A stretch of 64,000 nt of DNA from Neophaeotheca triangularis (GCA_054600435.1 BAAIJX010000047.1:1-64000), one strand, 5' to 3'; shown: positions 119-59,831, counted from the first letter of the stretch. Program-made: numbers and translations. Notes: generated by a model from the letters alone, not told the origin.

Positions 119-235
119 AAATCTACTTTGTCTTTAGCGTAAATGCTAGGTTTTTAATACTAGATTTTCAACGCACCTATTGTCGAGCGGCGCGAGTACT
201 TAAGAAGCCGGGAGACTAGTTTTGTTTAGGGAGGT

Positions 236-12533: not shown

Positions 12534-12683
12534 GGTTGTGGTTGCAATTCCTGTTTCGCCCGTTCAGCTTTCGTCACCTAATGGCAGACTGGTCTTGATA
12601 TCAATCTCGTCGGATGTTACTCGAGGCCTGAAGTCTGTCGTTGTTGTATATATCCCCCTCACTAAAGCCGGTAAATGTTGGAC

Positions 12684-12690
12684 TTTAGCC
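12684..12690 (-). promoter_or_regulatory. Candidate XlnR site GGCTAAA upstream of GH43
   Basis: Matches the XlnR consensus GGCTAR about 150 bp upstream of the ATG, next to a TATA-like element at about 12646-12653; a short motif that could be chance. Confidence 0.4.
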
Positions 12691-12826
12691 TGAAAGTACG
12701 CTGGGCTTACACAATGTAGCTTTAGTATGTCTTGGAAGGTCAACTCTGCATTAGTTCGATAGTTCGGTCTGGACAGAAAAGTGAATTAACGGAGTCATCT
12801 AGCTTGACCCTGACGAAGCTGCTCGA

Positions 12827-17656: not shown

Positions 17657-18828
17657 TGCTTGCCTGGTTGGCTAGTGGTCATGCATGAAAGTCCTGCTAT
17701 GGTCTTGTAAGCGTTCGAGTGACTCAGGAGTAGGACTGGTACGAGAGCGAGATTGAGTCTTGCTCGGGAACGGGTGCCTTTGATTTGTTGGCCTCTGCCA
17801 GCTGTGGAAGCACGAGGTGAGGGCATTCTGCTGCAACGAGGTTACAAATCCATTGTCCGGATGCGGTCATAGGGGAACAACGTTGGATGGACAAAGATAA
17901 AACCCCGTGATCTTCGAGGCTTCGAACATCTGGAAATGGCTTTGTCTGCACCGGTCTGGCCCTCGTAGGAAGGATAGACATTGCAAGCATGATAGAGACT
18001 GGTGTTGCTCTTGAATATCTGGACTCGAGGCTTCGGGTACCTTGTTAACGAATGGTTGCGAACTTGGCTCCTTGCCTAAGCTCGCTGCTTGGGATGCGCT
18101 TTGTAGAAGTCGCCGGACTACAGTGATAGCCATTGATTCAGTGGTCCTACGTCGCTCTGTGTTCCCGGCGACTTAGCATCGTTCCCCTCCCTGCCTTCTT
18201 TATAGGTCGGGTGTTCACCTGCAACAGGTAACTTGCCTGTCCCGCGGCGATTACGGGCCGCTCCAGGGGTCGGCCCCGGACCGCTGAAAACAGCCAATCA
18301 CCTGGCCAGTAGCTGTGCTATCAGGCAGTTTGAACCCCACCTACACTATGTACCTAACCTTGGAAGGTTGCCTCGCGGATTTAATGGCTGCCAGTGGTTA
18401 ACGCCGAGGCCGGGGCTGACTCGACTCGACAGCTGCGCGGCATGGTCGTCGTTCTTTCTTTCTGCCTGCCCGCCTGCCTGCCTGTCCATATAAGGTACCT
18501 ACAAGACTGAAACTACCTATACGACTGGACCCGGACCCGACGTCGTGAACAATCATTCCTCGCCGCTGGTCCAAACACGACCATTTCGTCATTCCTGCTA
18601 CCTTTCTCGAGCTTCATACCTAAGCTGAGGTGACTTTTGAGAAGCAACAGATCATACTTCAACGACAGCGCGAGCGCATCGAACGAGCACAGTCTCTCTG
18701 GCCTGCGTCTACTTCAATCCTCTGCGAAAAGCGCGACGCCTTCGACCTGGCCATCTTCCCACCGAGCCCCTGCCTTTGCGCTCCAGACCACCACATTCAG
18801 CGCCTAGAGCGCACCTACTTCTGCGACA

Positions 18829-21749
18829 ATGATGCCCCGCAATGGTCCTACCCCTCCCTCTTCACACTCCTCTAACGGACCCTCCCCCGACGGCGCGCCA
18901 TTCCGCGTGGTCAGGAAACGTAACCGCATACCCCTCTCGTGCGGGCCATGCCGTCACCGCAAGCTCAAATGCAACCGTGGGAGCCCTTGCGATAACTGCA
19001 GCAAGCGAGGTGATGCGGCTTCGTGCAATTATGCCAATGCGCAGAGCCGGCGCAAGAACACCAACGGCGGCACTGGCCCGGATGAGATGCAAAATCGCAT
19101 TGACAGGTTGGAGGGGTTGGTCCTGTCGCTCATGACAGCTGGCGGACAGCAGCAGGGAGGAGGCGCGGGAGCGGCTGCGGCGGCACAGGTGGCGATCAAT
19201 GGGAGTCGGAGTAATAGCACTACCAACAGCATGGGTGGGGCATCCGAGTTGCGGCTATATCGAGGGGAGGATGATATGATCAAGGAGGAAGGCGAAATGC
19301 CCGACGAAAGTGATGTCGACCAGGTCTCGAGAGGGATTGGGATAATGAAGATGGACAACGGACGGGCTCTCTTCGCGTCCGATGCGCATTGGTATGCGAT
19401 TTTGGGGGAGATTAGTGAGGTCAAAAACTACTTCAATGCACACAAGGAGGATTACGTGAGTCAGGTAGCCAAGGTGGCCGCGACAACAAATGATGGCGAT
19501 TCCAAGGGCACCATACTTTTGCGCGCGCCGTTGGCAAAAGACAAGTCGGAGATCTTGGCGCAGTTTCCGGCAAAAGCTGATAGTGATCGTTTGATCGCGA
19601 GATACTTCAATGCCTACGACCCGTCAGTGCACATCATCCACGGACCAACCTTTCAATCTCAATATGATCAGCATTGGACGAACCCAGAGGAAACTTCAGT
19701 GGCCTGGCTGGGACTCTGTTTCGCCATGATGACCCTGGCGCTGCAATCTTACACCCGAGCTGGAGACGAACCACCGGAATACCAGGGCAGGGCGCTGGAA
19801 CTCTCAAACACTTTTCGAAGGCTTACGGCCCAGTGTCTGATACTTGCGGACATTACGCAGCCGCTCCCTCACGCCCTCGAAACACTTATACTTCACATAA
19901 TGGCCGAGTACGGACGCAGTAGAGACCCTGACCCGGGCGTACTCATTCTAGTCAGTCTTTGCGTGCGACAGGCTATGAGAATGGGTTATCATCGCGACCC
20001 GGGCCCGCATCCGAACGTACCCCCTTTTCAAAAAGAGATGAGGCGGCGTGTTTGGTGTTTCGTCAGGACATGCGACCTCGTCATTTCTTTTCAATTCGGT
20101 ATGCCTGCCATGATCAGGACTGATCACATTGATACTTTACCACCGAGAAATCTCTTCGACGACGAGTTGTACGAAGATATGAAAGCCCTGCCGCCATCAA
20201 GACCGACTTATGAAGCCACGCCAATGTCTTATATGATCGCGAAAGCGAGAATGACCTTTGCGTTTGGCCAGATTGTAGAGCGAACGCAGTCGGTCAGCAA
20301 TCCACCCTCTCATGAAGAAACGATGGCCTTTGACCAGGAATTGCGGGAAGTCCGAGCAGGCCATCCACCGCACATCCAGATGCGCTCCTTCCAAGACTCC
20401 GCCCGAGATCCCGCTAACCTCATCATGCAGCGCTACGGGCTAGAAATGGTCTTCCTCCGTTCGCTCTTCGTCCTGCACAAACGCTTCATAGCCCGTGGTC
20501 GTGACAACCCGCGCTTCGCCTATTCCCGCCGCACCTGTATCGACGCCTCAATGGAACTCCTAGCCCACCAAGCAACTCTCCACCGCGAAGCGCAACCTGG
20601 CGGCCGCCTGCGGTCAGTCAAATGGTACATTTCGTCTCTCACAACCCACGACTTTCTGCTCGCCGGCATGCTCGTCTGTCTAGACCTCTATCACGTCGCC
20701 GAAGCGGAGTGCTACGGCCGCAAACCACCCACCACTGAGGCGGATGATCCCTCCGCCGATGAACGTCGTGCGAGCATGATGTCCGCAGTCGAGCATAGCA
20801 TAGCGATATGGCGTACGCTACAAGACCACAGCGTCGAGGCGTGGAAAGCTGCGACTACTCTGAGCGTTTTGGTGGATAAGTTAAAAGCGCACTCGGCGCA
20901 GCGCAGCATGGAGCAGAGCGCCCAACAATCGCAGCAGCCTCAGCAGCAAGACCGCAACTTTCAATTCTCCCGCCAAAACCAAAGCCAACCGTTCAACTCC
21001 TACACAAACTCCGACTTCCCCGCCGAGGACCTCGCGCCGGAGCAATCTGCCGCGATGACGCTAGGTATGTTGTCATCAGGCGGCATTACCTCACCGGGCA
21101 ACTCTTTCACGAATATGCAGCAACAGCAACAAGCAGCCAGTAACGCGGACAAGCAAGGCTCATACCCCCCAACCAACCTGGCAGCTCTACTAAACGACAA
21201 CCCTATGGGCGCCGAGAGAACAGGTCTGACGCCCGGCTACTCCGGGTCGGGTGGAATTGACAGTAGTGGCGCGGGGGCAATGAGCCCTTTCAGCCAGATG
21301 TTTGGCTCCGGTACCAACGCTGGCGGCGTGGCAGGTGGATTCAGCGGGCTCGAGGGCGGTGGTGACATCGATTGGGTGAGCCTTCCTCTTATCCTTCCTC
21401 CAACCCACCTCTTCCACGTGCGCGATGAAATCACATCAGGCACTCTACTGACTTTACCTTTCAGGGCGCCTGGGACTCCTACATTCAAGGCCCGTCCCCA
21501 CCGAACATGGACGCGAGTGCCTCTCTCTGGCCGCTGAATTTCGATTTTAACAACAACAATGCTCTGGTTCCGCCCATGGCGGGACAGCAGGTGGACCCGC
21601 AGCTGGCCGCTCAACAGGGGCAGAGCAGCGGTGGCGGCAATACAGGACCTCCCCCGAATGGCGGTGTTGCGAATGGCGGCTTTGTTGGTGCGAATGTGGG
21701 TGGGAGCGGTGATGGTGGTGGTAACAGTGGGGGTGGGTATGTAAGTTGA
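18829..21749 (+). CDS. Zn(II)2Cys6 transcription factor with fungal-specific TF domain
   Basis: CGPCRHRKLKCNRGSPCDNCSKRGDAASC and AMRMGYHRDP...EMRRRVW; intron 21376-21464 joins DIDW|GAWDSYIQG; the 3' end is less certain. Confidence 0.93.
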
Positions 21750-22665: not shown

Positions 22666-24609
22666 TCAGTCCCTCGCCTCCTTAGCAATAAACCCCTCAT
22701 CCATGACATAACTGCCCCCACCGCGCGCGACCTCAGTACCATCATCGCTCAAAACCCATCTCCGCCTATCCCTGACAACACCGCCACCCCTCCTGAACCC
22801 CCACTTCAAACCGCTTTGCCGCGAAGTCTCCAGTCCACGGCTTTTGAGTTTCCTCCCGGCAGCCGCTTTGGCTTCCCCATTGCTGATCTTGCCGATGAAC
22901 CCATGCTCCATGACCATGGCGTTGGCCGTTTCGCCGGATTGGTAGTAGTTGTCGACGTAAGCGCGGCGGGGGTTGGAGTGTTTGGAAGTCGGGTCGTCGG
23001 AGTTGGCGGTGGTGTTGTTTTGATCGTTGTTGTTGTTGTTGTTGTTGTTCTTGACGGCGGAAGCGAAGAAATCGAGGAGAGAAGCGGGGAAAGCGCTGGG
23101 TTCGTTGCGTTTGGGTTTCGGGGTGGGAGTGAGCACGCTGGTGACGGCGCGGCGGAGTTTGCCCAGAACACCGCTGGAGTGTAGTAGCGACGAGGCGTGC
23201 ATGTTGGGGGCGAAAGCGTCGTGGTGGGAGTTTTCGGGGGTTGCGAGCTTGCTAGCGGGAGCGTTTGGGCCTTCATCAGCAGAGGTTGTATCAACGTGGC
23301 TAGCCGTACCGACGGCGGCAGTACCGATGGCATGCACGCCGTTACTCGCGACGACCATTTCGCCGACCTCGCTCGTGCTACGGCCGCCACTCTTCTCGCT
23401 GCCCAGCCTCTCGCCGTTCATGCGCACCCACTCCTTGACTAGCGAGGGCGATTGAGCAAGTGTGCTGTTGGATGCAATGGCGTAAGCAACTATGCCGGTG
23501 ACGTGGGGCGTCGCCATAGAAGTGCCGGATAGGGAGTTGATGAAATTCGGGTCGCCGGGCCACGCGGAAATAATGTCCTCGCCTGGCGCGTACACGTCAA
23601 CACAGGCTCCGTAGTTGGAGAAATCGCTGCGGACGTCGTCCATACCCACGGAACCGACGGTGATGGCGCCGCCGTTTTGGCCGCCGGCGGAAGCGGGAGA
23701 GGAGGAGCAGGCGTCTTCGTTGGCGTTGCCGGCGGCTACGCAGGTGTGGATGCCGGCTTCGACGGCGGCGGCGATGGCTGCGTCGATGGCGGCTACAGGA
23801 GCGGAAGCGGCGAGGGAAAGAGACATGACGGAGCCTGCGGTGGCGATGGAGGGGTCGGCTTGCCTGTCGTCGTGGGCCTGAATGACGCGGTTGATGGCTG
23901 CGACGACGTTGGAAGACCATCCGCCACCTTCAGTGTCGAGAGCGCGGACCCCGAAGAGGTTTGCGTTGGAGGCTACGCCGAGGAGATGCCCGCCTGCTGT
24001 GGCTGCCACGTGAGTGCCATGGCCATCCGGATCACTGGTTTCGGAATCGAATGACCAGAGCATTTGCGCGCGGTCGTCAAAATCGTTGTGGGCTGTGTAG
24101 AGGCCCGTGTCGATGATGTAAATGTCCGCGCCGGTGCCGAGATCGGCGTTGGCGTAGTTGTAGGTGTAGTCCATTTGCTTGGGGTCGCCGCGTGACAGGT
24201 CATTGGTGGTTGAGATGCGTTGGAGGCCCCATGGAGAGTGAGGGCGGGAGCCGTAGGTGGCTTGCTGCCGTCTGCGGTGGGAGAGGGTGGATTGGACTGT
24301 TGTCGTTGCTTCGACGATGGAGACGTCGGTCATGTTGGCTAAGAGATCGAGACAGTGATGTTTCATATTTGCGGCGAAACCTTTAAAGGCGCTGTTGTCG
24401 AAGACGTGATGAACGTCCGGGTTGGACTCATTGAGGGCCAGTCGTTCGAGAATATCTGCTACTCGTGGGGGAATCGGTGATGATTTGTCGATGATGACAA
24501 TGTGTTCAGCGCCGCCTTGTTCGTGAGGGGCGACTTGTTCTTGTTGAGCCAAAGGAGCGGCCAGGATAGTGGCGGCGAAGGCCAAGGTAGTGAGTAGTGT
24601 GGACTTCAT
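22666..24609 (-). CDS. Secreted S8 subtilisin (proteinase K-like) with I9-type propeptide and long C-terminal extension
   Basis: Signal MKSTLLTTLAFAATILA; triad motifs IIDTG, HGTHVA and SGTSMATPHV; AAGN oxyanion motif. Confidence 0.93.
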   Translation of the reverse strand: MKSTLLTTLAFAATILAAPLAQQEQVAPHEQGGAEHIVIIDKSSPIPPRVADILERLALNESNPDVHHVFDNSAFKGFAANMKHHCLDLLANMTDVSIVEATTTVQSTLSHRRRQQATYGSRPHSPWGLQRISTTNDLSRGDPKQMDYTYNYANADLGTGADIYIIDTGLYTAHNDFDDRAQMLWSFDSETSDPDGHGTHVAATAGGHLLGVASNANLFGVRALDTEGGGWSSNVVAAINRVIQAHDDRQADPSIATAGSVMSLSLAASAPVAAIDAAIAAAVEAGIHTCVAAGNANEDACSSSPASAGGQNGGAITVGSVGMDDVRSDFSNYGACVDVYAPGEDIISAWPGDPNFINSLSGTSMATPHVTGIVAYAIASNSTLAQSPSLVKEWVRMNGERLGSEKSGGRSTSEVGEMVVASNGVHAIGTAAVGTASHVDTTSADEGPNAPASKLATPENSHHDAFAPNMHASSLLHSSGVLGKLRRAVTSVLTPTPKPKRNEPSAFPASLLDFFASAVKNNNNNNNNDQNNTTANSDDPTSKHSNPRRAYVDNYYQSGETANAMVMEHGFIGKISNGEAKAAAGRKLKSRGLETSRQSGLKWGFRRGGGVVRDRRRWVLSDDGTEVARGGGSYVMDEGFIAKEARD

Positions 24610-25902
24610 GGTTCGGTTAATGGAAGAAAGGAAGAGTCTGGTGTTGGATTTGATTGAACGAAAGTGGTCTATGTGAGAAGTTGAGAACAATAGGCTATTG
24701 TCTTGCAACAGCAAATTTTGCTTCTGAGGTAGTCGCCGTCAAGTGAAGGTGGGTGTGCCAGCACAGTGAATCGTAATGAGTGTGATTACTATGTAGCGTC
24801 GGGTAAAGGAAAGGATTAAGAAGGAGACTGCGCGGCGAGGAGAGAAGGGGGAGACGGGGTAGGTAGAAAGGAAGAGAACGGATAGGCAAAGTGAGAGGAG
24901 GAACAGGCAAGGCAGGTATAGAAAGAAAGAAAAAAAGAAAGAAAGGGTAGGAGAGAGATGTGGTTAGTATACCTGACAGAGACAAGTGTGTTGGCGGGTA
25001 GTAGTAGTAGTAGCACAAAAGTAGTAACTCGAAACAGCCGCTCCGACCGACCATGACCCAAGTTTCTCGTCTAGTGACTTAGCCTTAGCCTACTCTTCGC
25101 CATGTCTCTTTCTTATTACTATTCGAACCTCTCAGCCTATTCTGGACTCAAGACTCCAAGCCATTGTTACAAGTCAGATCGTTTCCGGACAAGAAGTCTC
25201 ACCCTGAACGGGGTGTTGGAGTGCAGGAGTGTAGGAGTCATGCTTGTTTCCCGCCTTTTGGTGAAGTCAGAGGTGACTAGAGTGGCTGAAGATGCTGCTG
25301 TTGTTCTGCTGTTGGCTACGGAGCAATTCAAATGTATATTCAAATGGGCGGTTAGAGGATGTGCTCGCTAAGAGTACAAGGAGAGCGTATAGGGGAAGAA
25401 GCGAAAGAGGACGGTCTTGGCTGAAACAGGGGAAGGCAGTGGAGGCGTGTATCAGATTGATGTGACGGAGAACTTGATTAAATAGTCACAAGCCACTCAC
25501 TATGCATGCATACGGTAAGGTATCAAGAGAACCTAGGTCCAGGCCTCGACGACGATGGTATTCGTGATTTGTTTGTCGTTCCTCGTTCTGTCTCATTTGT
25601 TGAAGTCAGCTGGAGCTTGATGGACAAGAGACCTTGGGGTTAGGGTTGAAGGATGGATGAAGTTGTGCATGTCACTCTGTTTCACGTGACCGCTTATCTG
25701 TCTTATCTTCCGGCAAACCTTCCCGTACTAGTACCTGGGAGGTACCCACGTCCGGAGCAAAGGAAGGCGACTTGCTAGCTCTCTTCACCTTTTCCCTCTT
25801 TCAATTGTAACTCGACCGTTGTCAACCCTTCGTCCGTCACAGGTGGGTCACCATTGTTTCCACACAACCGAAGTTACATACTCATCAACAGTGTGTCAGC
25901 AC

Positions 25903-27486: not shown

Positions 27487-29955
27487 GAGGGTAGCACTTG
27501 AGCTGGCGAGGGTGGAGGGGATGGATTCGGTAAAGGGGTTGTGCATGAGGTGGTCGCGGCGCACTACGCTGAGTGGTTCAGAAAGTGAAAAAGCGATAGT
27601 GTCGGCTGTGGTGATGGGCACAACGAATGCATGGCTCCTTCGACTAAATACGTTATAGCACGACATCTCATGGGCTGGACTGGGGATTATACTACTGGAT
27701 TGCATCGCATAGCGTCGGTTAGCGCAAGGAAAGATCAAGAAAGCAAGCAGCTATTGAAACCGCAGCTCCCACCGTTAGAGTTGAGAAGCTTCACATCAAG
27801 CCAGCAGACGAGAAAAAAACATGTCGATCGTGCAAGCGAAACGCATTCATTCAAAAGTTCATTGCGCTTGGGCTGCTAGCACGGTCTGCAATAGGGGCGA
27901 CTATGGCTGGCAGAACATGACGCGAAAGGGCAGAGGCAAAGGTAAGCTTGCGGACAGCCTTGTTGACTTGCCGGTGATGTCTAGGGCTGTACAGGACGCT
28001 CGTGGAAATGTAGGTAAGGGATGTCCTGCAATTACCTCAAGGCGTTGACAGCAGAATCGTGTCATGTAACGAACGAACTCGGGACTATTTCAAGGAGGTA
28101 TCTCTTATTCTTGCCGTACTGTTCTTGCCTCTCGGCCACGGTTGTGCCTTTTTACCTCTTGGCACTGTTTAGAGTGACTCTCACAGCTATGAGTAGGTAC
28201 GTCTCGAGGAGAGAAGGACAAACCGTAGTCGGGTAGTTTAAAACCGGGAGATCAGAGCACGTAGACGACACTACTTATGTGGATTTGTTCCGCATTTTAT
28301 TGCCATACGGAGGGACATCTGCCCTACGCTGCTCTAGTCACTTTGGTTGAGTCTTTGGTTTGATGGATTAAAGCACCGGAGGTAAGGTTATATGTAGGCT
28401 AAAAGGACGCCAAGATTGTCGGTCATGCTCGGGCTTTCCCAGATAGGATGTGGCGTAAAACACTTCCACGGCTCCGGGTCCTTATTTGGACCTCACTTGG
28501 GTCCTGGGCACTCTTTCCATAACCTCTACCCCTGGTTTCCCACAACGCCACGGTAGTTCGGTATACGCTGCATCATGGATCGTCGTGGTCGTCCGCCTCT
28601 TCTGTATGTACTACCGTGGTCTGGAAAAGCAGCAACAAGCCTTCCGAGGCCATCTAGCCTCAAGAACCGCCATTCATCAGTCTTCTACTTGATGTCACTT
28701 CCCGGCGGCTCGTTAGAGTTCCACCGGCATTGCACACCTTTAACGTCCCGGTCAAGTAGCAGCAAAGGCATGTTGCAGGGCGTGCTTGTTGGCCAGCACT
28801 TCTGCTCGAATTTGTGTTCGTCCCGCCCCACGACCCCACGGACACTGTGCTTTGGCTTGCGCCCGCGACCAGACCTGAGCTCAATCAAGATGTTGGTAGC
28901 CGTCGCGGCGTCGGAGCAGCAAGCAATCGTTGTCTTCGAGCGTTTTCATGGGGTAATGGACGGCCAAGGCTCCATCGTCATCGCGTCGCTGAAGAGACAC
29001 AGGAGGCTTTCGAGATCGATATCGTTGAATGGGCCGCGCCCGAGCAGAGTTTGTTCATGCTACGGCCACGATGCATTAGCTAATTCGGACTGCAGAGTGC
29101 ATATGGACGGCGAGAGCCTTTACTTCAATGTGACGGGCCTCGGGATCCTCCCTTGGAGCTAGACGTGAGATATTCCCCGCAAGCGTTGATCGGAGTGGCC
29201 TCCGCAAGGCTAGCGTATCCTAATGCCCTAGGCAAGGGTTCATCAGAACCACCCTGAGGACCGACTTTCACTACCTCCCAGCTTTGAAAGCTCGAGATCG
29301 CTGCCGTCTGTTTGTGTGATCGTTGCGCTGACTTGCAAGACGGGGGCCGAGCAGTAACTCTATTGTCAGGGTAAATCTATGCTCTCCACCCGATCCTGGA
29401 GTCTGCATGGCGTCTTCGAACCAGCCAGAATGTTATGAGCCCGATGTAATGGTAGGTTATGGGCTTGGCAACCCGGTCAAGAGCAGGCAAACAGCCGTGA
29501 AACGATCTAGAATTCGCTTTTCGTCCCTGCGATGGGAAACGTTCTAGCTGGACCATGACCGCTTCGGTCAAATGCCTTACTGGAAACCACAGCAGTGGCC
29601 GGACCTGGCTTCTAGGGATGTCGTTCGTTGCACTTATTGCCGTCCCAAACAGCTCGTCGATGCTTTTGATACTACCGCTATCCGCGCGACCAGCCAATCG
29701 ATTCAACCATGTATTGGCGGATCGCGGCATGAGCCAGCCATAGTGAGCTCTGGACTTTGGACTGCGAAATCTCGACCGCGTCATGGCACGACGCCGCCAG
29801 ATTGTGCAGATATTGGTCCTTCTCCTTGGCCCTATCTAGAGATTATAAGGGACTACCCTTTGCCGTCCTAAAGAGCTGACAAGCACCCTTACCGGCGCAG
29901 CCACGTTTGTAGAGAGGTGTCTGTTTTGTACTTTTTCTTCGCTGACCTATCAGCT

Positions 29956-32900
29956 ATGCGTTTCGCTGTCATCCTTGCTGCATTGTGCAGCGTCGTATCA
30001 GCGAATCCCCTCCACCGCCGTGCTCCCTGTAGCCCTGAGGCTGTACAGGCTCCAGGCGCCCCGGTGCCAAACCCGAACACCCCAAGAGCTTTCAGGAGTA
30101 ACACTCAGCATGGTGCTATAGCGACTTCCGCTGCCACTCCGGCCGGCTGGCAGCAAGTCTATGCTAACCTGGCCGCTTCTAACAAGCGAGTAAAAACTTC
30201 ACCAGTACGACAGGCCTCACAATGCTAATTCCTCGGCAGTGCCCCCCAATATTTAACCACTATAGCACTGAACTCATACGACCCCGCTGTCTGCGCTAAC
30301 CGATGCAATAGTATCAATGGTTGCGAGTCGTTCAACATCTATTTCCAACGATCACCTAGTGTGGAGCCGGGGTATCAGCAGTGCCAGAACCCAACAGCAG
30401 TCACAACGATCCACTGCGCGTTTTGGGGTAGCAGAATCTCCCTCGCAAACGCCGTCAACTCTGGCCAGTTCCGTGCTGACTTCCAGGTTCTCATTGCTGG
30501 CTCGAACGGGTACGGTAGGGCACCCCCACCCTCTTCCGTGACGACCCGCACCACCCCGACCTCTGCCGCCGTCTCGACTCGGACAACTCAAACTTCTGCG
30601 CCTGTATCAAGTCCAACCTCCAGGACAACTGGACCTGCGTCCAGCCCAACCACTAGGACAACTAGACCTGCGTCGAGCCCAACCACCGTCACAACTAGAC
30701 CTGCGTCGAGCCCAACTACCAGGACGACTGTGCCTGCGTCGAGCCCAACTACCAGGACAACTAGACCTGCGTCGAGCCCAACTACCAGGACGACTGTACC
30801 TGCGTCCAGTCCAACCACCAGGACAACTAGACCTGCGTCGAGCCCAACTACCAGGACAACTATACCCGCATCGAGTCCAACGACGAGAACTTCTGTACCT
30901 GTGTCAAGCCCAACTACCCCGACCTCCGGGCCTGTATCAACCGCCACCACTCAACCTTCTCCGCCTCTTGAGACTCCTACAACATTGACTTCGCCTGTTG
31001 AGAGCCCCACGACCCCTATCGTCCCGCCCGTGGAGACACCTTCCACGCCGACCACTCTTCCGATCGAGCCCTCCAGCGACCTAGCTTCTCCCCCCATCGC
31101 TACGTCCACTGCCGTTCCCGAAGTGAGCACGGCTACTTTCGTGTCTGAGGCCACCTCCGTCGTTGATGGTACGACAACTGTCGTGTCTGAGATTGTGACT
31201 GAGACGGGCATTCCTCCGCCCGTCGAGAGTCCTACCGACCTGACTTCCTTTCCTATAGAGACTCCTACTTCTATTCCGGAATTGAGCACGGCTACTTTTG
31301 TGTCCGAGGGTACAAGCGTTATTGATGGCTCGACAACTGTCGTGTCTGAGATTGTGACTGAGACGGGCATTCCTCCGCCCATTGAGAATCCTACCGACCT
31401 GACTTCCTTTCCTGTGGAGACTCCTACTTCCATTCCGGAATTGAGCACGGCCACTTTTGTCTCTGAGGGCACGAGTGTTATTGATGGCTCGACAACTGTC
31501 GTGTCTGAGATCGTGACTGAGACGGTTATCTCTGACATCGAAACTCCTACCGACCTGACCTCCCTTCCCATCGGGACTTCTACCAGCATCCCAGTGGAAG
31601 TGAGCACGGCCACTTTTGTGTCCGAGGGCACAAGCGTCATTGATGGATCAACGACTATAGCGTCTGAGACGGTGACCGAGACGGGCATTCCTTCGCCGAT
31701 TGAGACTCTCACCTCCACTTTTGTGACAGAGGGCACCAGTTTTATTGACGGCACACCGACCTTGGTGTCTGAGACGGTGACCGAAACGAGCGTTGCTTCG
31801 TCAATCGAGCCGATCTCGTCCACTTTCGCGACTGAGAGCACGAGTGTCATTGACGGGACACCAACCTTGGTGTCTGAAACGGCGACTGAGACGAGCCTTC
31901 CAGCCGAGACAGAAACCAATCTTCCAACCGATACTGCCACCACCGAGGTGACTACATCGAGTGCAGTTCCTGCGGAGACGACAGAGACCACCGAACTTGA
32001 ACTAACCACGTCCACTCTCGTCTCTGAGGTTTTAACCCTCACCGACGGCACCGAGATCACTGTCACGGAACCAGAAGCGAGCCTTTCTACTTTCATTTCT
32101 GTATCCGCGAGCGCTACAGTCATCGACGGAAGCACGTCTGCTATCCTCGTTTCTGAAACTCTGACGGCGACCAACATTCCGATACCAGAACTGACTACTT
32201 CCACCTTTATCTCTGAAATCGCTACCATTATTGACGGAAGCACATCAATCGTTTCACAAACATTCACAGAGATTGATACAGCCCCGGCTGAGACTGCTAC
32301 GACATCCGACGGTCCAGTCCCAACCGATACTCCCATCGATGACCAGATTTTCTCTGCTCTTTCCATCATCCTCAACACCGGCGCCCAAGACTTCTGCCTA
32401 AACCTTCTGGGTCAAGGTTCTAACGTCAATGTCCTCCGTCGCTTCAGTAGGCTGTTTGCGCGTCAGATCAATGACGTTCCGGCGCCTCTTTCTGGGTTCG
32501 ATCTCAACGTCTTGACAGCAGCTTGTCGGCTAGCAGTGGATGATTCGGCAACCACTACTACCGCCGATGCCGCCACTACTGCTACCGTTCCTTCCACGGA
32601 AATTGGCGAGACTCTGCTCCCAACTGAGACTGCCGGGGAGACAGTCATCACTTTGCCAACAGAAACTTTGACGCTGCCGTCTGATGAATCGACTGATGCC
32701 TCGCTTCCGGCCGAACCCACTGAAACTCAGTCCCAGACGGACTCAGACTCTTCGCTGCCAATTGTGACTGATGGGCAGACCGTGATTACGTTGTCTACCG
32801 GAACGATCGTTTTGCCTCCTCCTGAAGCTACCGATGTCTCGCTTTCAACCGAGACCGATGGAACTCTCATCCCCACGGAAACCGAAGCTCCCCCTGCATC

Positions 32901-35900
32901 GGAGACTGATGAGACCGTGATTATTTTGCCTACCGAGTCGATCACCTTACCAGTATCTGAGCAGCCGACTGAGATCCCGGTTTCCACGGACACCGAAGCT
33001 CCCCTTCAATCCGAGACCGTGATTATTTTGCCTACCGAGTCGATCACTTTACCAGTATCTGAGCAGCCTACTGAGGTCCCGGTTTCCACGGACACTGGAG
33101 CTCCGCTTCAATCTGAGACCGTGATCATTTTGCCTACGGAGTCGATCACTGTACCAGTATCTGAGCAGCCGACTGAGGTCCCGATTTCCACGGACACTGA
33201 AGCTCCGCTTGCATCCGAGACAGTGATTGTTCTGCCCTCGGAGTCAATCACTTTACCAGTATCTGAGCAGCCGACTGAGATCCCGGTTTCCACGGACACT
33301 GAAGCTCCGCTTGCATCTGAGACAGTGATAGTTCTGCCCTCGGAGTCAATCACTTTACCAGCACCTGAGCCTACTGAAGTCCCGCTTTCCACGGACACGG
33401 AAGCTGTATCTGAGACTGATGAGACGGTGATTATCTTGCCCACAGAATCAATTACCTTGCCAGCGTCTGAGCCAATTATCGTCTCGCTTTCCACGGACAC
33501 TGCAGTTGCGTCTGCGACTGAAGATACGGTGATTATCTTGCCCACCGGATCTATAACCTTGCCAGTACCTGAGCCTACTGACGTTCCGCTTTCCACGGAC
33601 ACTGCAGTTGCGTCTGAGACTGAAGAGACGGTGATTATCTTGCCCACCGGATCCATCACCTTGCCAGTACCTGAGTCTACCGACGCCTCGTTCTCAACTG
33701 ACACCGAGGTCCAGCTCCCAACTGAGACGGATGAGACGGTGATTATCGGGCCCACGGAATCGATCACTGTACCAGTGTCTGCGACGGTAGTGGACGGGAC
33801 TACTTCGATCATCTCTGAGACTGGCCTTCCGCTTCCGACGGAAACATCCCCTCCTGAAGTGACAACATCTCCATCGGCCTCCGAGAGCACTACACTTGTG
33901 GACGGCACCATTTCAACCATCTCTGAAATCTCTGAGATTGCTACTGAGACTGGTCTTCCGATAACGACAGAGACCTTCGTCCCTCTCCCGACGGAGACCT
34001 CCCTTCCAGGCACAAACACATTCGTGTTTGTTTCTGAAAGCACAACTGTAATCGACGGGATCACTTCCATCGTCTCGGAAAGCTTCATTGAAACCAGCCT
34101 TGATGCTTCGTCTGAGACGTTCGTTCCGCTTCCGACTGACAATACTCCACCCGAGGCCACTGCGTCTGCTTCGGCCTCTGAGGCTACTACCATAACCGAT
34201 GAGCTTAGCACTTCCGTTGGCTCTGAAACTCTTGTCGAGACTGGCATCCCCATCCCAAGCGAGACCGACATCCCAGCCACCAGTGAGGCCTCCACTGTAT
34301 CGCCAAGTCAGAGCCTCCCGGCCCCATCAACAGATACTGCTCTTTCCGAGCTGACAACATCCACATTGGTGTCTGAAATTACCACTGTCGTTGACGGCAC
34401 TATGACACTGATCATTTCTGAGACCGTGATTGAGACTGAAATTCCTTTCACGAGCGAGACCCTGGCTCCCATCCCCAGTGAGACGCTCTTGTCGACCTCA
34501 AGTGACGTTTTCAATCCGATCCCAAGCGTGACGCCCATCCCGGTCCCGACGGAGACCGCTCTCCCTGATCTCACCTCGACCTTCATCTCTGAAAGCTCCA
34601 CCGTTGCTGGCGGTATAACCTCAATCGGTTCAGAGACGGTGACCGAGATTGCAACCCCAGGAGAGACTTCTTCTTTCGTCTCGGAAGTCCCAACCGTTAT
34701 CGAAGAAACTTCCGCCGTGGTGACTCCAGTCGAGACCTCTACATCCATCTCGGAAATTACTACAGTGATTGATGGCACCTTCACCGCTTCTGAGATCGAG
34801 ACTGAGACCCTGCCTCCTCTTGTGACCTCTACTCTCGTCTCTGAAGTTACTACCGTCATTGATGGTACAATCTCCACCTTCTCTGAGACGGCGATCGAAA
34901 CCACCGGTATCGTGTCGGAGACGGGGGTCGAAACTGAGTCTACTACTGGCATCCCGCTCCCAACTGACACCGAGGTCGTGCTCCCAACCGAGACTGATGA
35001 GACGGTAATTATTCTGCCTACGGAATCGATTACCTTGTCCGCACCTGAACCTACTGACGTCCCACTCTCGACTGACACTGAGATCGGTCTCCCAACTGAG
35101 ACTGATGAGACGGTGATTGCTCTGCCAACGGAAACATTCACCTTGCCAGCACCGGAGCCCACTGACGTCCCGCTCTCGACTGACACCGAGATCGGTTTCC
35201 CAACTGAGACTGATGAGACGGTGATTATTCTGCCTACGGAATCGATTACCTTGTCAGCTACTGACGTCCCACTCTCGACTGACACTGAGATCGGTCTCCC
35301 AACTGAGACTGATGAGACGGTGATTGCTCTGCCAACGGAAACATTCACCTTGCGAGCACCGGAGCCCACTGACGTCCCGCTCTCGACTGACACCGAGATC
35401 GGTCTCCCAACTGAGACCGATGAGACGGTGATTATTCTGCCTACGGAATCGATTACCTTGTCAGCACCTGAACCTACTGACGTCCCGCTCTCGACTGACA
35501 CCGAGATCGGTCTCCCAACTGAGACTGATGAGACGGTGATTGCTCTGCCAACGGAAACATTCACCTTGCCAGCACCTGAACCTACTGACGATTCGACCAC
35601 GAGCGAGCTAGATGAGGCCCCGGTCACAACGGGCAGCGATGTTCCTCTTCCAACTGAGACCGACGAGACAGTGACCATTCTGCCGACCGAAACAGCCACT
35701 ATCTCTGCATCTGAGCCTACCGATGTTCCGCTCTCAACCGAGACAGAAGAAAGTGTTACCGCTGACCCTACTGCGACGCTCATTCTGCCGACCGATGCGC
35801 TCTCTACTGGAACCGATGAAACTCTTATCACGCTCCCTTCCGAGACGCTTACTCTACCAACGGCCACTACGGAACTGCCAATACCTACGGAAACAGACGA

Positions 35901-38900
35901 GACAGCTATTGCAGTGCCAACAAGCACACAGATCCAGTCGACCGATACTGCCGGAGTGTCCCTTCCTAGCGAAGAGACTGTCGTCGCTCTGCCTTCGGAG
36001 ACTCTTACTCTGCCGACTGACGCTGTTGAGCCACCACTTCCTACCGAGGCCGAAGAGACTGTCATTGTTTTACCCTCCCAGACATTGACTCTGCCCACTG
36101 ACGCTGTTGAGCCACCACTTCCTACCGAGGCCGAAGAGACTGTCATTGTTTTACCCTCCCAGACCTTGACTCTGCCGACTGACGCTGTTGAGCCACCACT
36201 TCCTACCGAGGCCGAAGAGACTGTCATTGTCTTACCCTCGGAGACCTTGACTCTGCCGAGTGACGCACCCGCTTCAGAAACTGCTGATACAGTGACTCTT
36301 CCGACTACTCTACCAACTGATGCCGAAGTGACGCTCCCTACCGCAAGCGAGGAAACGACCATCGTCCTCCCTAGTGAGACACTTACTTTGCCGGCTACTT
36401 CTTTCCCTATCATATCGACTCCCCCGATTCCAACAGACATTCCCATCGATGATCTGATCCTCTCGGCCCGTGCGGCTATTCGAGCTGACAGTCAACAACC
36501 ATTCTGCAGTCTGTTACTTGGCCTTGATCTTAACCCCGTCGTTGATGCTCTTCAGCGCCGCGATGTGGTCTTTGAGCGTCAAATCAGCGTACCTTCTGGT
36601 TTTCCGGCCATTCCCTCTTCTCTTGCTGGTATCAATATTCAACTCCTCGCGGCAGCTTGTAGACAAGAGGTACCAGCTCCTGCTGTCACTACTGGCACCT
36701 TTTCCTTGATAACTGCGCTGCCAACGGAAACTGCACTGACTACGTCTACATTCACCTCCGAGAGCACGCTCCCTGTCGAGACCTCGACCTTCATATCAGA
36801 TATTGCTACCGTCATTGACGGCACGACTTTTACAATCTCTGAGACAGCGATTGAGACCAGTGTGATCGTGTCTGAGACGGGGTTCGAAAGTCTGCCTCCG
36901 GTCGCGACCTCTATCTCGGAGATTGCCACTACTGTCGTTTCCGAGACAGTGACCGAAACTGGCGTCCAAGCTCCAATCGAAACCATTACGTTCATTTCTG
37001 AGATCGACACCATCATCGATGGAACGCCAACGATAACTTTCGAGACCTTTACCGAGACTGAAATCCCCCCAGTTGAGACTACTACATTCATCTCGACCAG
37101 TGCTACCGTCATTGATGGCACTTCGTTGCTGTCTGGGACTGTGGTCGAGACGGTTGACCCAACGCTTACAGACCTCACCACGGATGTTTCGACCTTCCCG
37201 GCGCCTTCTGGTCTACCCACCGATCTCCCCACCGTTGTAATCCCGACAGACGGGCCAGTAGACACGACTCTAGAGATTCCAACAGACTTGCCAACAGACC
37301 TCCCAACCGCGAACATCCCAACAGATGATCCTACAAGTCTCCCAACCGACTTGCCGACAGTTGTAGTTACAACAGGTGACGAATCTCTCACAACTATAGA
37401 GATTCCGACTGACCTCCCAACTGATCTGCCCACTGTGGTCGTTCCAACCGGTGGGATCCCAACGACTATCGAGACCTCGTCAGGCCTTCCAACCGATTTA
37501 CCAACTGTGATAATTCCAACTGATGGATCGAGTATCGAGATCCCCACAGATCTCCCGACAGATCTGCCGACTGTGATTATTCCAACCGATGGCACCGCTG
37601 ACCCAACGATCGTGATTCCTACAAGTGGGCTCTCTGAGCTTCCTCCAACTGTTGTTGTGCCAACGACGCTCCCACCTGAGCTCACATCTGACCTGACTAG
37701 TGATCTTCCATCGACAGTCGTGGTGCCGACTGTACTCCCACCAGAGCTCACGTCCGACCTCACCATCGTTTCGCCGCCGACAGTCGTGGTCCCGACAACA
37801 CTCCCCCCGGAGCTCACGTCTGACTTCACCACTGAGCTCCCGCCAACTGTTGTGGTTCCAACAGTACTGCCCACAGACCTTACTACTGACACGGCCACCA
37901 ATCTACCGACAGTCGTTGTCCCGACGGTACTTCCTCCGGAGCTCACGTCTGACTTGACTGTTGATCTTCCACCAACTGTTGTCGTTCCGATTACTGAGCA
38001 ATCGACGGCCCCAACAACTGAGCCTACCACTGCTCCGACGATAGTAATTCCGTCAGTTCCTACTACTGAGCTGACCACTGCTCCTACAATCGTGATCCCA
38101 CCTAGTCCGACTACTGAGCAGTCGACGGCCCCAACAACTGAGCCTACCACTGCTCCGACGATCGTAATTCCGTCAGTTCCTACTACTGAGCTGACCACTG
38201 CTCCTACAATCGTGATCCCGCCTAGTCCGACTACTGAGCAATCGACGGCCCCAACAACTGAGCCTACTACTGCTCCAACTGAGCCGACCACGGCTCCGAC
38301 GATTATAATTCCGCCTGTTCCGACTACTGAGCAATCGACGGCCCCGACGACGGAGCCTACCACTGCTCCGACAATCGTAATTCCGCCAGTTCCTACTACA
38401 GGGCCGACAACTGCTCCGACGATCGTAATCCCGCCTGTTCCGACTACTGAGCAATCGACGGCCCCGACGACTGTGCCGACCACTGCTCCTACCACTGCTC
38501 CGACAATCGTAATCCCGCCTGTTCCGACTACTGAGCAATCGACGGCCCCGACGACTGTGCCGACCACTGCTCCGACAACTGCTCCGACGATCGTAATCCC
38601 GCCTGTTCCGACTACTGAGCAATCGACGGCCCCGACGACCGTGCCGACCACTGCTCCGACAACTGCTCCGACGATTGTAATTCCGCCTGTTCCAACTACT
38701 GAGCAATCGACGGCCCCAACGACTGTGCCGACCACTGCTCCGACAACTGCTCCGACAACTGCTCCGACAACTGCTCCGACCATCGTAATCCCGCCTGTTC
38801 CGACTACTGACCAATCGACGGCTCCGACGACTGTGCCGACCACTGCTCCCACAATAATTCCGTCAATTCCTACCACCGGGCCGACAACTGCTGCAACGAT

Positions 38901-40017
38901 TGTAATTCCGTCTGTCCCGACTGCTCAGCTTCCTACGACGCCCAGCACTCCGAACGCGCCGAGTACGACCACGACTACAACGATCACAATTGTTCCGACC
39001 GCTCCTGGTACCACTGCTCCCCTTCCGACTACCCCAAGCACTACAACAACTGTCCCATCGGTCCAGACTACCCCCAGAACTACTATTACTGTCCTCCCAC
39101 CTACCGTCCCTCTCCCTACTACCCTGATAACTTCCGCCATCCCGACAACTAATCCAGTGGAACTTGTTCGCCAAGCTGTCGCTGTCATTACGGCAATCAG
39201 TGCACAACCCTTTTGCTCGACGCTGCTTCTCTACTCAACGCCAATCGTGACCAACACCATACCTGTTACCACGACTCCTGTGGTCACCACCAGGGTCCAG
39301 TTTACCTCAGTCACTATCACCACGACGAATCCACCTGCCATAGTGCTAAGGACGTTCAACTCTGCCAACTATGCGAATGGTGTTTTCCCTTCCACAATTC
39401 CAGTCTCCTATCCTTCCTTCCTCCCGGGTGCTACATTCGCTACTACCGCGGGTATTCAGGCACGCCAAGCCAATCCTACGCCGACGGCGCTCGCGAATAG
39501 CTTCGCTCCGTCCATCATCACATCCGCTTGCAGGACCGCTGTCCCGTCGCCTACTGGCACCATCACCAACCTCATCACCTCTATTGTAACGGCAACGCCG
39601 ACTACGACGACCATCACTACGTCCACTGTCGTCGCTACTGCGACGGTGCTCAGCGCGCCTGCGTGTGCTCTCGGTGGCACTCAGGTCACAGGTGCGGGAC
39701 GTTGTCGATGCACCTATGACCTGACCTGTGGTCGTTTCGACAGCGCGGTCTGCAACCTAGCCGCGGGCACCTACACCTCGACCGCCGCCTGCGCCCAAGC
39801 CTGTGACACATTCAATGGCTGCGTCGGCGCCAACTTCAACCGCCAATCGGGGCTGTGTACTCTTTGCAGAGGCGAGCAACTCGGGAGCCCGAACCCTCTC
39901 AACCCGGCCCTCTCGAATGCTCTGTTGAACTTCAACTCAGCCTTTGGCGTCAACACGACTTCTGTTCTCAGACGCGATAGCTCTTGTTTAGCGAATACTA
40001 ACGTCTGTTTCCAATGA
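29956..40017 (+). CDS. Giant secreted Thr/Pro/Glu-rich modular mucin/adhesin-like protein (~3,335 aa)
   Basis: Signal MRFAVILAALCSVVSA; Cys-rich N-domain (SYDPAVCANRC...GCESFNIYFQRSPS...IHCAFWG); several tandem repeat families; three FC...AC modules; C-terminal Cys-rich PAN/Apple-like region; inferred GC-AG intron 30186-30239. Confidence 0.9.
30630..38860 (+). repeat. Coding tandem repeat arrays within the giant gene
   Basis: Units of 33 bp (~30630-30890), 159 bp (~31120-31700), 102 bp (~32910-33400), 108 bp (~34960-35590) and 81 bp (~36000-36260), plus PTTAPT/IVIPPVPTTEQST arrays (~37990-38860). Confidence 0.9.
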
Positions 40018-54015: not shown

Positions 54016-54678
54016 GAAAGACCTCATCAGGAGTGGTTTTTAGTTGTAGCGGTACGTGGTATAGTAGTCCTCCTAAGATATAGTCCTGAATATTTTTGTT
54101 TGAGCCTTGAACATCAGTGCCACAGCGGCTTTCCAATGACTGTCTTTGTAGCCATGTCGGTGTAATGCAGAGCTCTTTGGTCAAACATTTCGAGTTTATT
54201 GGCAGTCAAGCTGGGTCGAGGCCGTATTGCCGCAGCGACTCGAGGAAACGCAGGCGTCTCATTCTCACTCAACAGCTTGAGCTCCTGTACCTGCGAGCAT
54301 TCCTTGCTGTTGGCTGGTGATGAAGTAGCACATGTGGGAATGGAGAGGTGAGGTGTGGTTGTAAGGGCCGGATGTAAGTGGAGGTGGAGGTGAAAGTGAA
54401 GTCGGTTGGAGCCGATGTGCGGAGAAATCCCCAGCCCCCCTCATCCCTTTTCCCCCGGGGGACCGTCGGGGCGACCCACCGGAAGTCCAACGACATGCGC
54501 ATCGTGCAAGCTGCACCTTTCCCTCACCCCGAGCATGACAGGACCATGACATGATGTGACCCTGCTGGGCAGCCAAGACCAGACCATGTCCTTATCTGGA
54601 GAGAGAGGCACAATGGAGAGGAGAGAGTGTCCCTCATTCTCACCTACTTATCTTCCCTAACGTCCAGCACAATCCACA

Positions 54679-56829: not shown

Positions 56830-57204
56830 GAATTGATATGGCTGCGCACTAGTAACTCTTGGGCATATCACGGAAGAAAACTAGTAGACTCTTACGATGG
56901 TGTCGAACCTCAATGAACCGATGGAGGTGTTGACAAAGACTGTCCATAGATAGATCAAATAGTTTTGTCTTTACTACGAGTAACTTGTACACGTATCCTC
57001 CCAGATCTACGCTTCACCGCCGGCACCTAAACGTACGATTCTTATCAAATTTCCTCGTTCGGTATCGTTCTTAGTTGAATTAGAAGGAACGAAGACATCG
57101 ATTGCAGCAAAAAGGCTCTCTCAGCACTTGAGCATCGACCAACTCAAAGGGTCCGCCTTACGATAAACTAGACACGATACCTGCAGTCCTCTAAAGCGTC
57201 GTTC

Positions 57205-59088: not shown

Positions 59089-59831
59089 AGCTCTATCGGA
59101 TCGTTGGCGCAGAGAAGTTCAACATCTGACGATCGGTATAAGGTGAAGACTCGGGAGATTCGTGGGAGCATCGCAAACCCTTTAAAGGATGATCAAACTG
59201 GAGAAAACGGAGTTCTTTCGAATCATGGCGGCCCCGATGATCCCCGTTCCCATGTGAGTAGTCCATGGCTTTCGGTATACGCCTTTCGCGTGGTAGGATT
59301 GGTAGTCTTTCCGCGCAGTCATGTCTCTCCACGCCGATCCCCGCATTTCCCCACGCCCTAAGAGCAATTCAGCTGGGGACAGAAAAGGGGTTGCGGAAGT
59401 ACAGCCATCTCCCCTCCGGTGGGGCTACTTCTGGTCCCAATGGCTGTGTGCAATCTTGAGTCAGTGAGTGTTGTGCAATCCAAGGACAAGAGCCTTAGCC
59501 ATGCACTTGGACCAGCGGTCTACCAATTATATAGCTGTCTCCTCCGCTACGTAGGTCCCATGATAGCCGGAGGGGGGGTGCGGGGTCGCCTAAAGAAAAC
59601 CTGGGAAAACTTGGACGCGAGATATGGTCCTAGATCTATGCCCCAAGCGCCAAAGTCGACTTCCAGAGGGATCCTGTTATTGATAGGAACACAAGTTCAC
59701 AGGTCGTACGCAGTGATACCACGGAATGTATCAGCCCGGTCGGTAATACCGCAGCTCATTCTAGGACCTAACTCATTCTGCATGCCTCCTCCAAGCATAG
59801 TAACGGCCATAGAACATCGCCCAGACCACTT

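Follow-up and report, generated by a model that had tools for sequence, protein, structure and literature searches.

The locus and its gene model

We analysed a 64,000-nucleotide stretch of DNA from the black yeast Neophaeotheca triangularis (GCA_054600435.1, BAAIJX010000047.1:1-64000; hereafter, the window), in which a giant two-exon fungal gene occupies positions 29956-40017 on the plus strand. Its spliced coding sequence is divisible by 3 and specifies a protein of 3,335 amino acids (aa), with a predicted mass of ~342 kDa and an isoelectric point of ~4.05, from which lysine is entirely absent. Published accounts describe N. triangularis as a halophilic inhabitant of salterns and marine sediments (PMC10914880, PMC13000284), which makes dihydroxynaphthalene (DHN) melanin and grows as clumps or hyphae depending on salt (PMC13000284).

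The two exons are separated by a short intron with the unusual GC-AG boundaries (Table 1). The join 30185/30240 turns AA+T into the Asn codon 77 and leaves the frame intact; unspliced read-through from exon 1 would instead give AAG-CGA-GTA-AAA (K-R-V-K) and then a stop. Homologous proteins align without a break over the junction (query residues 21-178): they read ...NLAASNNAYGYLG... against ...NLAASNNAPQYLT... in the spliced model, with ...ASN-N-APQYL... at the junction corresponding to their ...ASNNAYGYL.... Further, a contig from a metatranscriptome (run X4) spans 29919-30185 and ends at the last base of exon 1 plus two non-fitting letters, while a DNA contig (run X3) continues through 30186-30239. 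We take this as a weak hint for the intron, since the RNA contig does not bridge the junction and hence is no proof of splicing. Thus, the intron is supported by the homologues that read across it and, weakly, by where the RNA contig stops. Other donors were considered and rejected: the GT dinucleotides at 30190 and 30206 leave no open frame with the CAG acceptor at 30239, and the only frame-compatible GT pairing (donor 30206 with acceptor 30265) deletes residues conserved in the homologues. The result is a documented GC-AG intron and a corrected model for the giant gene, the start of which is signal-peptide-like when read by eye and resembles the N-termini of two N. triangularis proteins described below (P0001 and P0032).

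Absence of lysine from the predicted product

The open frame at 30229-40017 comprises 3,262 codons, none of which specifies Lys. Its residues are T755, P419, S341, V283, E259, I245, L235, A228, D141, G105, F67, Q57, N47, R44, C23, Y10, H1, W1 and M1. The 76 exon 1 codons at 29956-30183 are likewise free of Lys, and the sole in-frame Lys codon of exon 1, an AAG at 30184-30186, is broken by splicing. The full product accordingly has K0 alongside R49, H3, N54, Q61 and W2. A sequence-only reading of this DNA had claimed as much for the open frame, for exon 1 and for the AAG split into AAT by the putative GC-AG intron, and residue counts on the spliced translation bear it out on each point; it had also described three Cys modules and a C-terminal domain, which we recover as three two-Cys modules and a Cys-rich domain, and only RR dibasic sites, which is what the product contains (RR four times, KR never).

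In exon 2, AAA or AAG occurs 93 times out of frame and 0 times in frame. Further, 24 of the 49 Arg codons are AGA or AGG, each one transition away from a Lys codon, and Lys-creating changes make up 3.5-3.9% of all possible non-synonymous point mutations in the coding sequence. A recent review defines a lysine desert by length, as a Lys-free run that spans 150 or more residues or takes up at least 50% of the sequence (PMC13696103); by this measure, the desert here extends over 3,335 of 3,335 residues. At 30325-30327, the window has GAG (Glu) and run X2, from a second sample of the same organism, has AAT (Asn); the first change alone gives AAG (Lys), a single case from which we draw no inference.

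We then estimated how readily such a zero might arise by chance. The 20 other long open reading frames (ORFs) of the window (8,480 residues) contain 3.84% Lys, with a K/(K+R) ratio of 0.38. At this ratio, the probability of finding 0 Lys among 49 basic residues is 7e-11, a value to be read with the caveat that the repeats leave the basic residues less than fully independent. The sequence-only reading had further noted that the Lys-free state reaches beyond the repeats while Arg is used, and this too stands: the non-acidic ends (residues 1-300 and 2801-3335; 835 aa) hold R37, K0 and just 16 Asp+Glu, for which P = 2e-8 at the same ratio. The seven tight tandem arrays, on the other hand, reduce to 95 minimal residue changes, and with P(no Lys) ~0.03 are too weak alone. 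The comparison with homologues provides stronger evidence than any of these window-based probabilities.

Lineage-specific loss of lysine

A search with 96 residues of the N-terminal domain (N-domain; window 30241-30528) recovered 23 proteins of 169-2,000 aa (E 1.5e-71 to 3.5e-16; 44-71% identity), and the N-domain family shows 23 invariant positions, 5 of them Cys. The best match, P0001 from N. triangularis itself (625 aa, 71% identity), is also Lys-free (K0, R13, Asp+Glu 93). The other 22, which include proteins from Aureobasidium, Elsinoe, Xylaria, Colletotrichum, Sphaceloma, Pycnora and Myriangium, contain 1.1-5.2% Lys. A search with P0001 added P0032, again from N. triangularis (804 aa; K2, R20, Asp+Glu 104), with one of its two Lys lying in a KR site, and P0035 from Hortaea werneckii (628 aa; K15). 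None of the 73 candidates among proteins of 1,791-5,702 aa matched the N-domain at E <= 0.001, that is, no giant homologue was found in this size range. The last 302 residues, searched against 1.84 billion representatives, matched 8 proteins (E 1.5e-49 to 1.6e-4); the best of these, P0024 (269 aa, 43% identity), is once more Lys-free (K0, R9), and the other seven hold 1-12 Lys. The window protein shares with this family the two-Cys module (PFCSTLLGY...SSAC), of which it has three, and the Cys-rich C-terminal domain. A second family domain (YNLAHPP...CQFFNTY...QGQYC), seen in P0002, P0003, P0016, P0025, P0026, P0029-31 and P0035, is absent from the sequences of the window protein, P0001 and P0032.

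The sequence-only reading had suggested looking for systematic replacement of Lys in aligned homologues, and had considered that equally Lys-free domains in unrelated fungi would undo its case. An alignment of 32 N-domain copies showed a sharp division on both counts. First, all 4 Neophaeotheca-type copies (one each from the window and P0032, two from P0001) have K0, and each of the 28 copies from other fungi has 1-12 Lys, so that homologous domains elsewhere are not Lys-free. Second, at a column with Lys in 27 of the 28 other copies, the window copy has His, the P0032 copy Tyr, one P0001 copy His and the other Phe. Third, the Neophaeotheca-type copies read R, V, R and R at a further column, where 13 of the 28 have Lys and 3 have Arg. 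Where 2-5 of the 8 other sequences in the C-terminal alignment have Lys, the window protein has P, A, P, S and S. The dibasic sites display the same bias: the four Lys-free or Lys-poor proteins have RR 9 and KR 1, compared to KR 45, RR 15, KK 13 and RK 9 in 33 other family members.

In a maximum-likelihood tree of the N-domain (30 rows; the short rows P0009 and P0031 were left out), the four Neophaeotheca-type copies fall on one side of a branch with a Shimodaira-Hasegawa-like approximate likelihood-ratio test (SH-aLRT) value of 91. The inner branches of this clade sum to 1.63 changes per site over 151 columns, or ~246 changes, in the course of which no Lys arose. The expectation is 5.9 Lys arrivals at the family Lys frequency of 2.4% (P = 3e-3) and 14.5 at the general protein frequency (P = 5e-7). 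Run X2 holds the window stretch at ~98% identity together with contigs whose ends read like the second domain of P0001, indicating that P0001 is a paralogue carried by the same organism or by a sister of it. Runs X3 and X5 cover short parts of the stretch only, and no statement on habitat draws on them. The purge therefore happened once in evolution and was then maintained for long across several gene copies. On this comparison of sequences, lysine was evidently purged from, and then kept out of, the Neophaeotheca-type clade of the family.

The same alignments bear on whether charge or the Lys side chain itself is the target. The window N-domain stretch has K0, R7, H2 and Asp+Glu 5, and the N-domain cores of 14 Lys-containing homologues average K 3.6, R 3.2 and Asp+Glu 10.1; thus, the number of basic residues is conserved and their identity has changed. 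The last 302 residues, with K0, R12 and Asp+Glu 6, are equally non-acidic. As a control, three unrelated acidic Thr/Glu-repeat proteins, picked by shared words, were found to hold 28-51 Lys. Asp+Glu reaches 19-41 per 200 residues across residues 401-2800 and ~15% in the protein centre, and Ile+Leu+Val make up ~23% of all residues. The low Lys and retained Arg (K0, R49) typical of halophilic proteins are present, but their acidic excess does not run throughout, with Asp+Glu 16 against R 37 in residues 1-300 and 2801-3335. As positive charge is kept through Arg and His, selection acts on the Lys side chain and not on charge. This reading, in which Lys itself has been selected against in one lineage, in several paralogues, and in folded and unfolded as well as acidic and non-acidic parts, is well supported by the sequences, and it agrees with the core proposal of the sequence-only reading that such selection extends to the folded domains: conserved Lys positions were replaced in this lineage only, and ~246 changes passed without a Lys arising.

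Domain architecture

The 3,335-residue protein belongs to an ascomycete family of secreted 'apple domain-containing' proteins, of which it is a vastly enlarged form. It features a PAN/apple-like domain at each end, three two-Cys modules, and ~2,700 residues of tandem repeats rich in Thr, Pro, Ser, Val and Glu (Table 1). The repeats belong to at least 8 families (24 tandem-repeat rows), cover ~80% of the protein and are built from 11 residue types. With T759, P428 and S346 accounting for 46% of the residues, the product has the mucin-like make-up of long Pro/Thr/Ser-rich repeats behind a predicted signal peptide. A single-sequence AlphaFold2 (AF2) model of the 53-residue repeats reached a predicted local distance difference test (pLDDT) score of 46.9, and no fold was readable from it. 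A by-eye reading of the C-terminus, which consists of an RR site, polar residues and two Cys, found no signal for glycosylphosphatidylinositol (GPI) attachment. Two heads set apart by a long spacer rich in Thr and Pro point to a protein that may act as a tether with two binding ends or cross-link a matrix. P0001 follows this head-spacer-head plan on a small scale, with an acidic TETETLPP-type spacer flanked on either side by an N-domain; P0032 has the N-domain alongside domains of the PAN_3 type.

Table 1. Features of the giant gene; positions are counted from the first nucleotide of the window.
Feature	Position	Strand	Remarks
Exon 1	29956..30185	+	Codons 1-76 and first two bases of codon 77; ATG at 29956
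Exon 1 content	29956..30185	+	Signal-peptide-like start, HRR dibasic site, first third of N-domain
Intron, GC-AG, 54 nucleotides	30186..30239	+	Donor GCGAGT, branch-like CTAAT, acceptor CAG
Exon 2	30240..40017	+	3,258 full codons and last base of codon 77; includes stop codon; zero Lys codons
N-terminal PAN/apple-like domain	30022..30519	+	Residues 23-170, intron-interrupted; 6 Cys; 0 Lys; 7 Arg in compared 150-residue stretch
His135 codon	30412..30414	+	Position of Lys in 27/28 homologous domain copies from other fungi
Nine 11-residue Pro/Thr/Arg/Ala/Ser repeats (PTTRTTRPASS type)	30613..30918	+	Basic; Arg only, AGA/AGG codons
Acidic Thr/Ser/Val/Glu repeats, 53 and 35 residues	31108..31901	+	Tandem-repeat detection
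Two-Cys module 1	32335..32538	+	C796...RR...C839; equivalent to PFCSTLLGY...SSAC module of homologues
34-residue acidic repeats, ~8 (ETVIILPTESITLP type)	32904..33767	+	Tandem-repeat detection
36-residue acidic repeats, six	34943..35590	+	Tandem-repeat detection
27-residue acidic repeat, ~3.7 copies	35970..36266	+	Tandem-repeat detection
Two-Cys module 2	36445..36672	+	C2166...RR...C2217
22-residue repeats, then 16-28-residue Thr/Ala/Pro/Ile/Val repeats	37669..38854	+	Tandem-repeat detection
Two-Cys module 3	39151..39543	+	C3069...C3174; aligns with modules of P0024-P0031
C-terminal Cys-rich PAN-like domain	39658..40014	+	12 Cys; without hydrophobic tail

We consider both end domains to be PAN/apple-like, judging from profile and model comparisons, without filing them as members of a Pfam family, as both score below the gathering threshold: the N-domain reaches 13.6 bits with PAN_4 (PF14295; cut-off 27) and the C-domain 11.3 bits with PAN_1 (PF00024; cut-off 21.4). 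Among the relatives, P0001 just reaches PAN_1 (21.7 vs 21.4), P0032 reaches PAN_3 in another domain (31.6 vs 21.1), and PAN_1 or PAN_4 is matched at E 6e-4 to 1e-3 in P0026, P0035 and P0024. An AF2 model of the N-domain from an 18-sequence alignment (pLDDT 70.8) displays an E-H-E-E topology. A Foldseek search with this model recovered no PDB match at E <= 0.001. When the model was compared against 48,161 chains with VIA-align, 11 of the 14 best-ranked rows were PAN, apple, WSC or MANEC chains. Their Z-scores were 4.0-5.5 only, and 4.3-5.5 for the leading PAN/apple chains, a range that the tool calls common and that lies below its distinctive level. The ESM Atlas cluster nearest to P0001 is named 'Apple domain-containing protein' (score 0.90).

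Two of the three two-Cys modules of the window protein contain RR. More generally, in the modules of P0002, P0003, P0016, P0025-P0031 and the window protein, there are nearly always 1-2 dibasic sites between the cysteines, with KR in the other fungi and RR in the window protein. The loop may be nicked by a Kex2-type protease, with the chains then held together by the disulfide.

N-glycosylation sequons are nearly absent from the giant protein: there is 1 N-x-S/T among 54 Asn, and three Asn lie in N-P-T. Shuffling led us to expect 15.6 sequons (whole protein) or 10.7 (20-residue blocks), and 0 of 2,000 shuffles gave one or none. P0001 and P0024 have 0, and several homologues that contain Lys are sequon-poor as well, among them P0018 and P0016 with 1 (7.6 expected) and 2 (7.2 expected), respectively. 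As Lys-containing homologues share it, this poverty in sequons looks like a family trait apart from the lysine purge.

Genomic neighbourhood

The giant gene sits among genes for polysaccharide use at 11497-14954, 18808-21537, 22666-24738 and 54661-61960, which encode a GH43 enzyme, a GH51 arabinofuranosidase, a transcription factor of the fungal zinc-cluster type, an S8 subtilase, a melibiase, an MFS sugar transporter and a GH3 enzyme. Their ORF pieces contain Lys at 12/373 and 4/245 (GH51), 10/241 and 6/412 (GH3), 13/221 (GH43) and 21/690 (S8 protease). The sequence-only reading had stated that the neighbouring GH51 and GH3 enzymes use Lys normally; they do use it, at 1.5-5.9% across the ORF pieces examined, and lie on the low side. 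The opposite extreme within the window is an ORF with a Hva1_TUDOR domain at 8795-9985, with 11.6% Lys (46/396).

On the minus strand, antisense ORFs of 395-745 aa lie inside the giant gene (window 30588-39207), and the GC skew over the gene is strongly negative (-0.18 to -0.30). Both are expected from a codon make-up rich in ACN, CCN and GAG, and neither is evidence of a gene. The GC content of the first 6,000 positions (1-6000) is 0.42-0.45, compared to 0.50-0.59 elsewhere in the window.

Explanations for the absence of lysine

The pattern is robust and has no trivial explanation, while resting on one evolutionary event. Among possible causes, we rank Lys-directed cleavage or amine chemistry on an exposed tether first, salt adaptation second and an intracellular cause third.

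Our favoured explanation, offered tentatively and at somewhat short of an even bet, is that a presumed agent at the cell surface attacks lysine. Once mature, the protein would probably be O-glycosylated and unfolded over most of its length, a long tether or matrix linker with a head at either end that is permanently exposed at the surface of a melanised, brine-dwelling yeast. Any single Lys in such a tether could be a point of attack, either as the cut site for Lys-directed proteases, be they the yeast's own surface enzymes or those of neighbouring microbes, or as a nucleophilic amine that quinones, aldehydes or oxidases could capture covalently. A single such event would be enough to cut or immobilise the entire tether; hence, the penalty per site would be large, and a large penalty per site would explain a strict zero rather than mere depletion. 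The one Lys of P0032 that lies in a KR site could be removed by processing, which we infer to fit a constraint on the mature, exposed protein. An exposed tether thus best explains the strict zero, the retention of Arg and this single tolerated Lys at a removable site.

Several points weigh against it. First, Arg remains, so trypsin-like enzymes could still cut. Second, melanised and salt-tolerant relatives keep their Lys (Hortaea werneckii P0035, K15 in 628 aa; Aureobasidium, K 4-17), and melanin or salt exposure alone therefore does not force a purge. Third, the three Neophaeotheca-type proteins all have RR at the pro-peptide site (HRR before the first Cys), which is KR in many homologues; this fits the exposure argument poorly, because a Lys there would be removed before export, although the shared RR counts as one event only. 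Fourth, all Lys-free copies trace to one clade, that is, essentially one event plus maintenance. Finally, secretion, glycosylation and surface location are predictions from sequence.

Of the original interpretation, selection against Lys is retained, while its plant setting, with resistance to plant quinones and aldehydes as an example, is doubtful: the closest relatives belong to a halophilic yeast reported from salterns and marine sediment (PMC10914880, PMC13000284). A serious rival that it did not raise is salt adaptation, in which Lys would have been removed as part of a halophile make-up (acidic-rich, few Lys, Arg preferred) that keeps a surface polymer hydrated and soluble at 3-5 M NaCl. 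We regard this as rather unlikely on balance, despite a good deal in its favour. The organism that supplies the closest relatives is reported to thrive at 22-28% NaCl (PMC10914880); ~15% of the protein centre is Asp+Glu, and P0001 and P0032 are also very acidic (93/625 and 104/804, respectively). Moreover, replacement of surface Lys raised the salt-dependent stability of a model protein (Tadeo et al. 2009, as summarised in PMC13696103), and acid-enriched wall proteins have a precedent in the Wallemia hydrophobins, as described in PMC3849046. However, the N-domain and the last 302 residues are non-acidic (Asp+Glu 5 and 6) and still Lys-free, the ~23% Ile+Leu+Val is unlike the low hydrophobicity of halophilic proteins, the other enzymes encoded in the window keep their 1.5-5.9% Lys, and the H. 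werneckii homologue retains 15 Lys, the near-invariant one included. A bulk effect on solubility would also impose a tiny penalty per site in 3,335 aa, a poor fit to a strict zero.

Less probable again is an intracellular lysine desert, whereby the giant unfolded precursor would be spared ubiquitylation or another modification of Lys during synthesis and threading into the endoplasmic reticulum (ER). The size definitions published for such deserts (PMC13696103) are satisfied, Lys is avoided even at the pro-peptide dibasic site that is removed before export, and sequons, the other handle for ER quality control, are nearly absent as well (1 vs ~10 expected). Yet, co-translationally translocated chains hardly meet cytosolic ligases, the sequon poverty is shared with Lys-containing homologues and is hence a separate trait, homologues of the same architecture in other fungi carry Lys, and P0032 tolerates one in its KR site. 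The available text of the 2026 lysine-desert review (PMC13696103) has 0 occurrences each of 'secreted', 'extracellular' and 'mucin'.

An origin without any selection, in which Lys-free repeat units were amplified within an acidic low-complexity protein and the small domains lost their Lys by chance, is already disfavoured and seems to us distinctly improbable. It can draw on the ~80% of the protein that is built of repeats from 11 residue types, on the mere 95 minimal changes in the tight arrays (P ~0.03), and on the single ancestor of all Lys-free copies. It leaves unaccounted for the folded domains and non-acidic ends, which are also Lys-free with Arg kept; the replacement, in four copies and by three different residues, of a Lys present in 27 of 28 others; the ~246 changes without Lys; the three further proteins with 0, 0 and 2 Lys; and the 24 AGA/AGG codons that never drifted to Lys. 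Economy, with the costly residue omitted from a protein made when lysine or nitrogen is scarce, deserves little credence: nitrogen thrift is a published idea for marine microbes and nitrogen-rich residues are scarce overall (R49, H3, N54, Q61 and W2 in 3,335), but Arg costs twice the nitrogen of Lys and is nonetheless kept and even substituted for it, fungi synthesise their own lysine, and no regulatory evidence was seen.

If attack on an exposed tether is indeed the cause, then the giant protein could represent the first extracellular lysine desert under selection, found in a small class of two-headed PAN-domain tethers without primary amines and shaped by Lys-specific attack (protease, amine oxidase, or quinone/aldehyde tanning) in brine, mat or a melanising wall. 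We put forward this fuller proposal with a little more reserve than the favoured cause itself. It takes in the replacement of an otherwise near-invariant structural Lys by His, Tyr or Phe; were it true, standard proteomics with Lys-C or trypsin would not see the class. Indeed, proteins with no Lys, 49 Arg in 3,335 residues and probably heavy glycosylation are of the kind that routine proteomics would miss. That a 342-kDa protein lacks one amino acid throughout, a conserved structural position included, makes for a clean natural experiment on the extracellular cost of the Lys side chain, and would carry the lysine-desert idea from ubiquitin biology to the cell surface. It would further provide a means of testing how fungi of extreme habitats keep their long-lived surface polymers intact in brine, and hints at a rule for designing secreted polymers that are chemically inert and resist proteases.

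Comparison with known systems

Among previously characterised systems, lysine deserts offer a conceptual parallel. As reported (Szulc et al. 2023, PMC10665810; Kampmeyer et al. 2023, PMC10169902; PMC13696103), these are long, conserved Lys-free stretches that keep Arg and are read as selection for absence, as we propose for the window protein. The cases described are proteins of the ubiquitin-proteasome system in the cytosol or nucleus, pupylation targets of bacteria, and subunits of toxins; the present one, in contrast, would be a whole secretory protein of 3,335 residues. The acid-enriched hydrophobins of Wallemia ichthyophaga (Zajc et al. 2013, PMC3849046) likewise belong to the wall or surface of a halophilic fungus and have a halophile-like composition, there attributed to direct exposure to brine. 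The available text of that paper reports acidic excess and has 0 occurrences of 'lysine', whereas the trait seen here is zero Lys, non-acidic domains included. At the level of abstracts in the open-access literature, we found no fungal secreted or wall protein described as Lys-free, lysine-less or lysine-depleted.

With respect to architecture, the protein compares with the ascomycete apple-domain proteins, all uncharacterised, such as KAF4554910.1 of Elsinoe fawcettii (P0026) and P0035 of Hortaea werneckii, in which the N-domain, the two-Cys module with one or more dibasic sites inside it and the Cys-rich C-domain follow one another as they do in the window protein. The full order in KAF4554910.1 is signal peptide, N-domain, second 'YNLAHPP' domain, two-Cys module with dibasic sites, Thr-rich linker and Cys-rich C-domain. 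However, these proteins are 350-950 aa long, with the second 'YNLAHPP...CQFFNTY' domain, neutral Thr/Ser linkers and 1-5% Lys, while the window protein has no second domain, three modules, ~2,700 aa of acidic repeats and zero Lys. Ss-Sl2 of Sclerotinia sclerotiorum, a secreted wall protein with two PAN modules that is tied to cell cohesion and integrity, can be likened to it by description only; unlike the window protein, Ss-Sl2 is not reported as giant, repetitive or Lys-free in the available text (PMC3338822).

The best structural matches of the N-domain model are apicomplexan PAN/apple lectins, which serve as sugar-binding adhesin heads: SML-2 of Sarcocystis (2yil, Z 5.5) and MIC4 of Toxoplasma (4a5v, Z 4.8), both with Z-scores in the range that the tool calls common and with 12-15% sequence identity. 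Fungal adhesins of the Candida Als and Saccharomyces Flo11 types combine a signal peptide and a binding head with long, glycosylated repeats rich in Thr, Ser, Val and Ile, and are GPI-anchored; the window protein differs from them in having a second head in place of a hydrophobic tail. Lysine deserts themselves are known, and what would be new is the occurrence of one in a predicted extracellular giant protein of a halophilic fungus.

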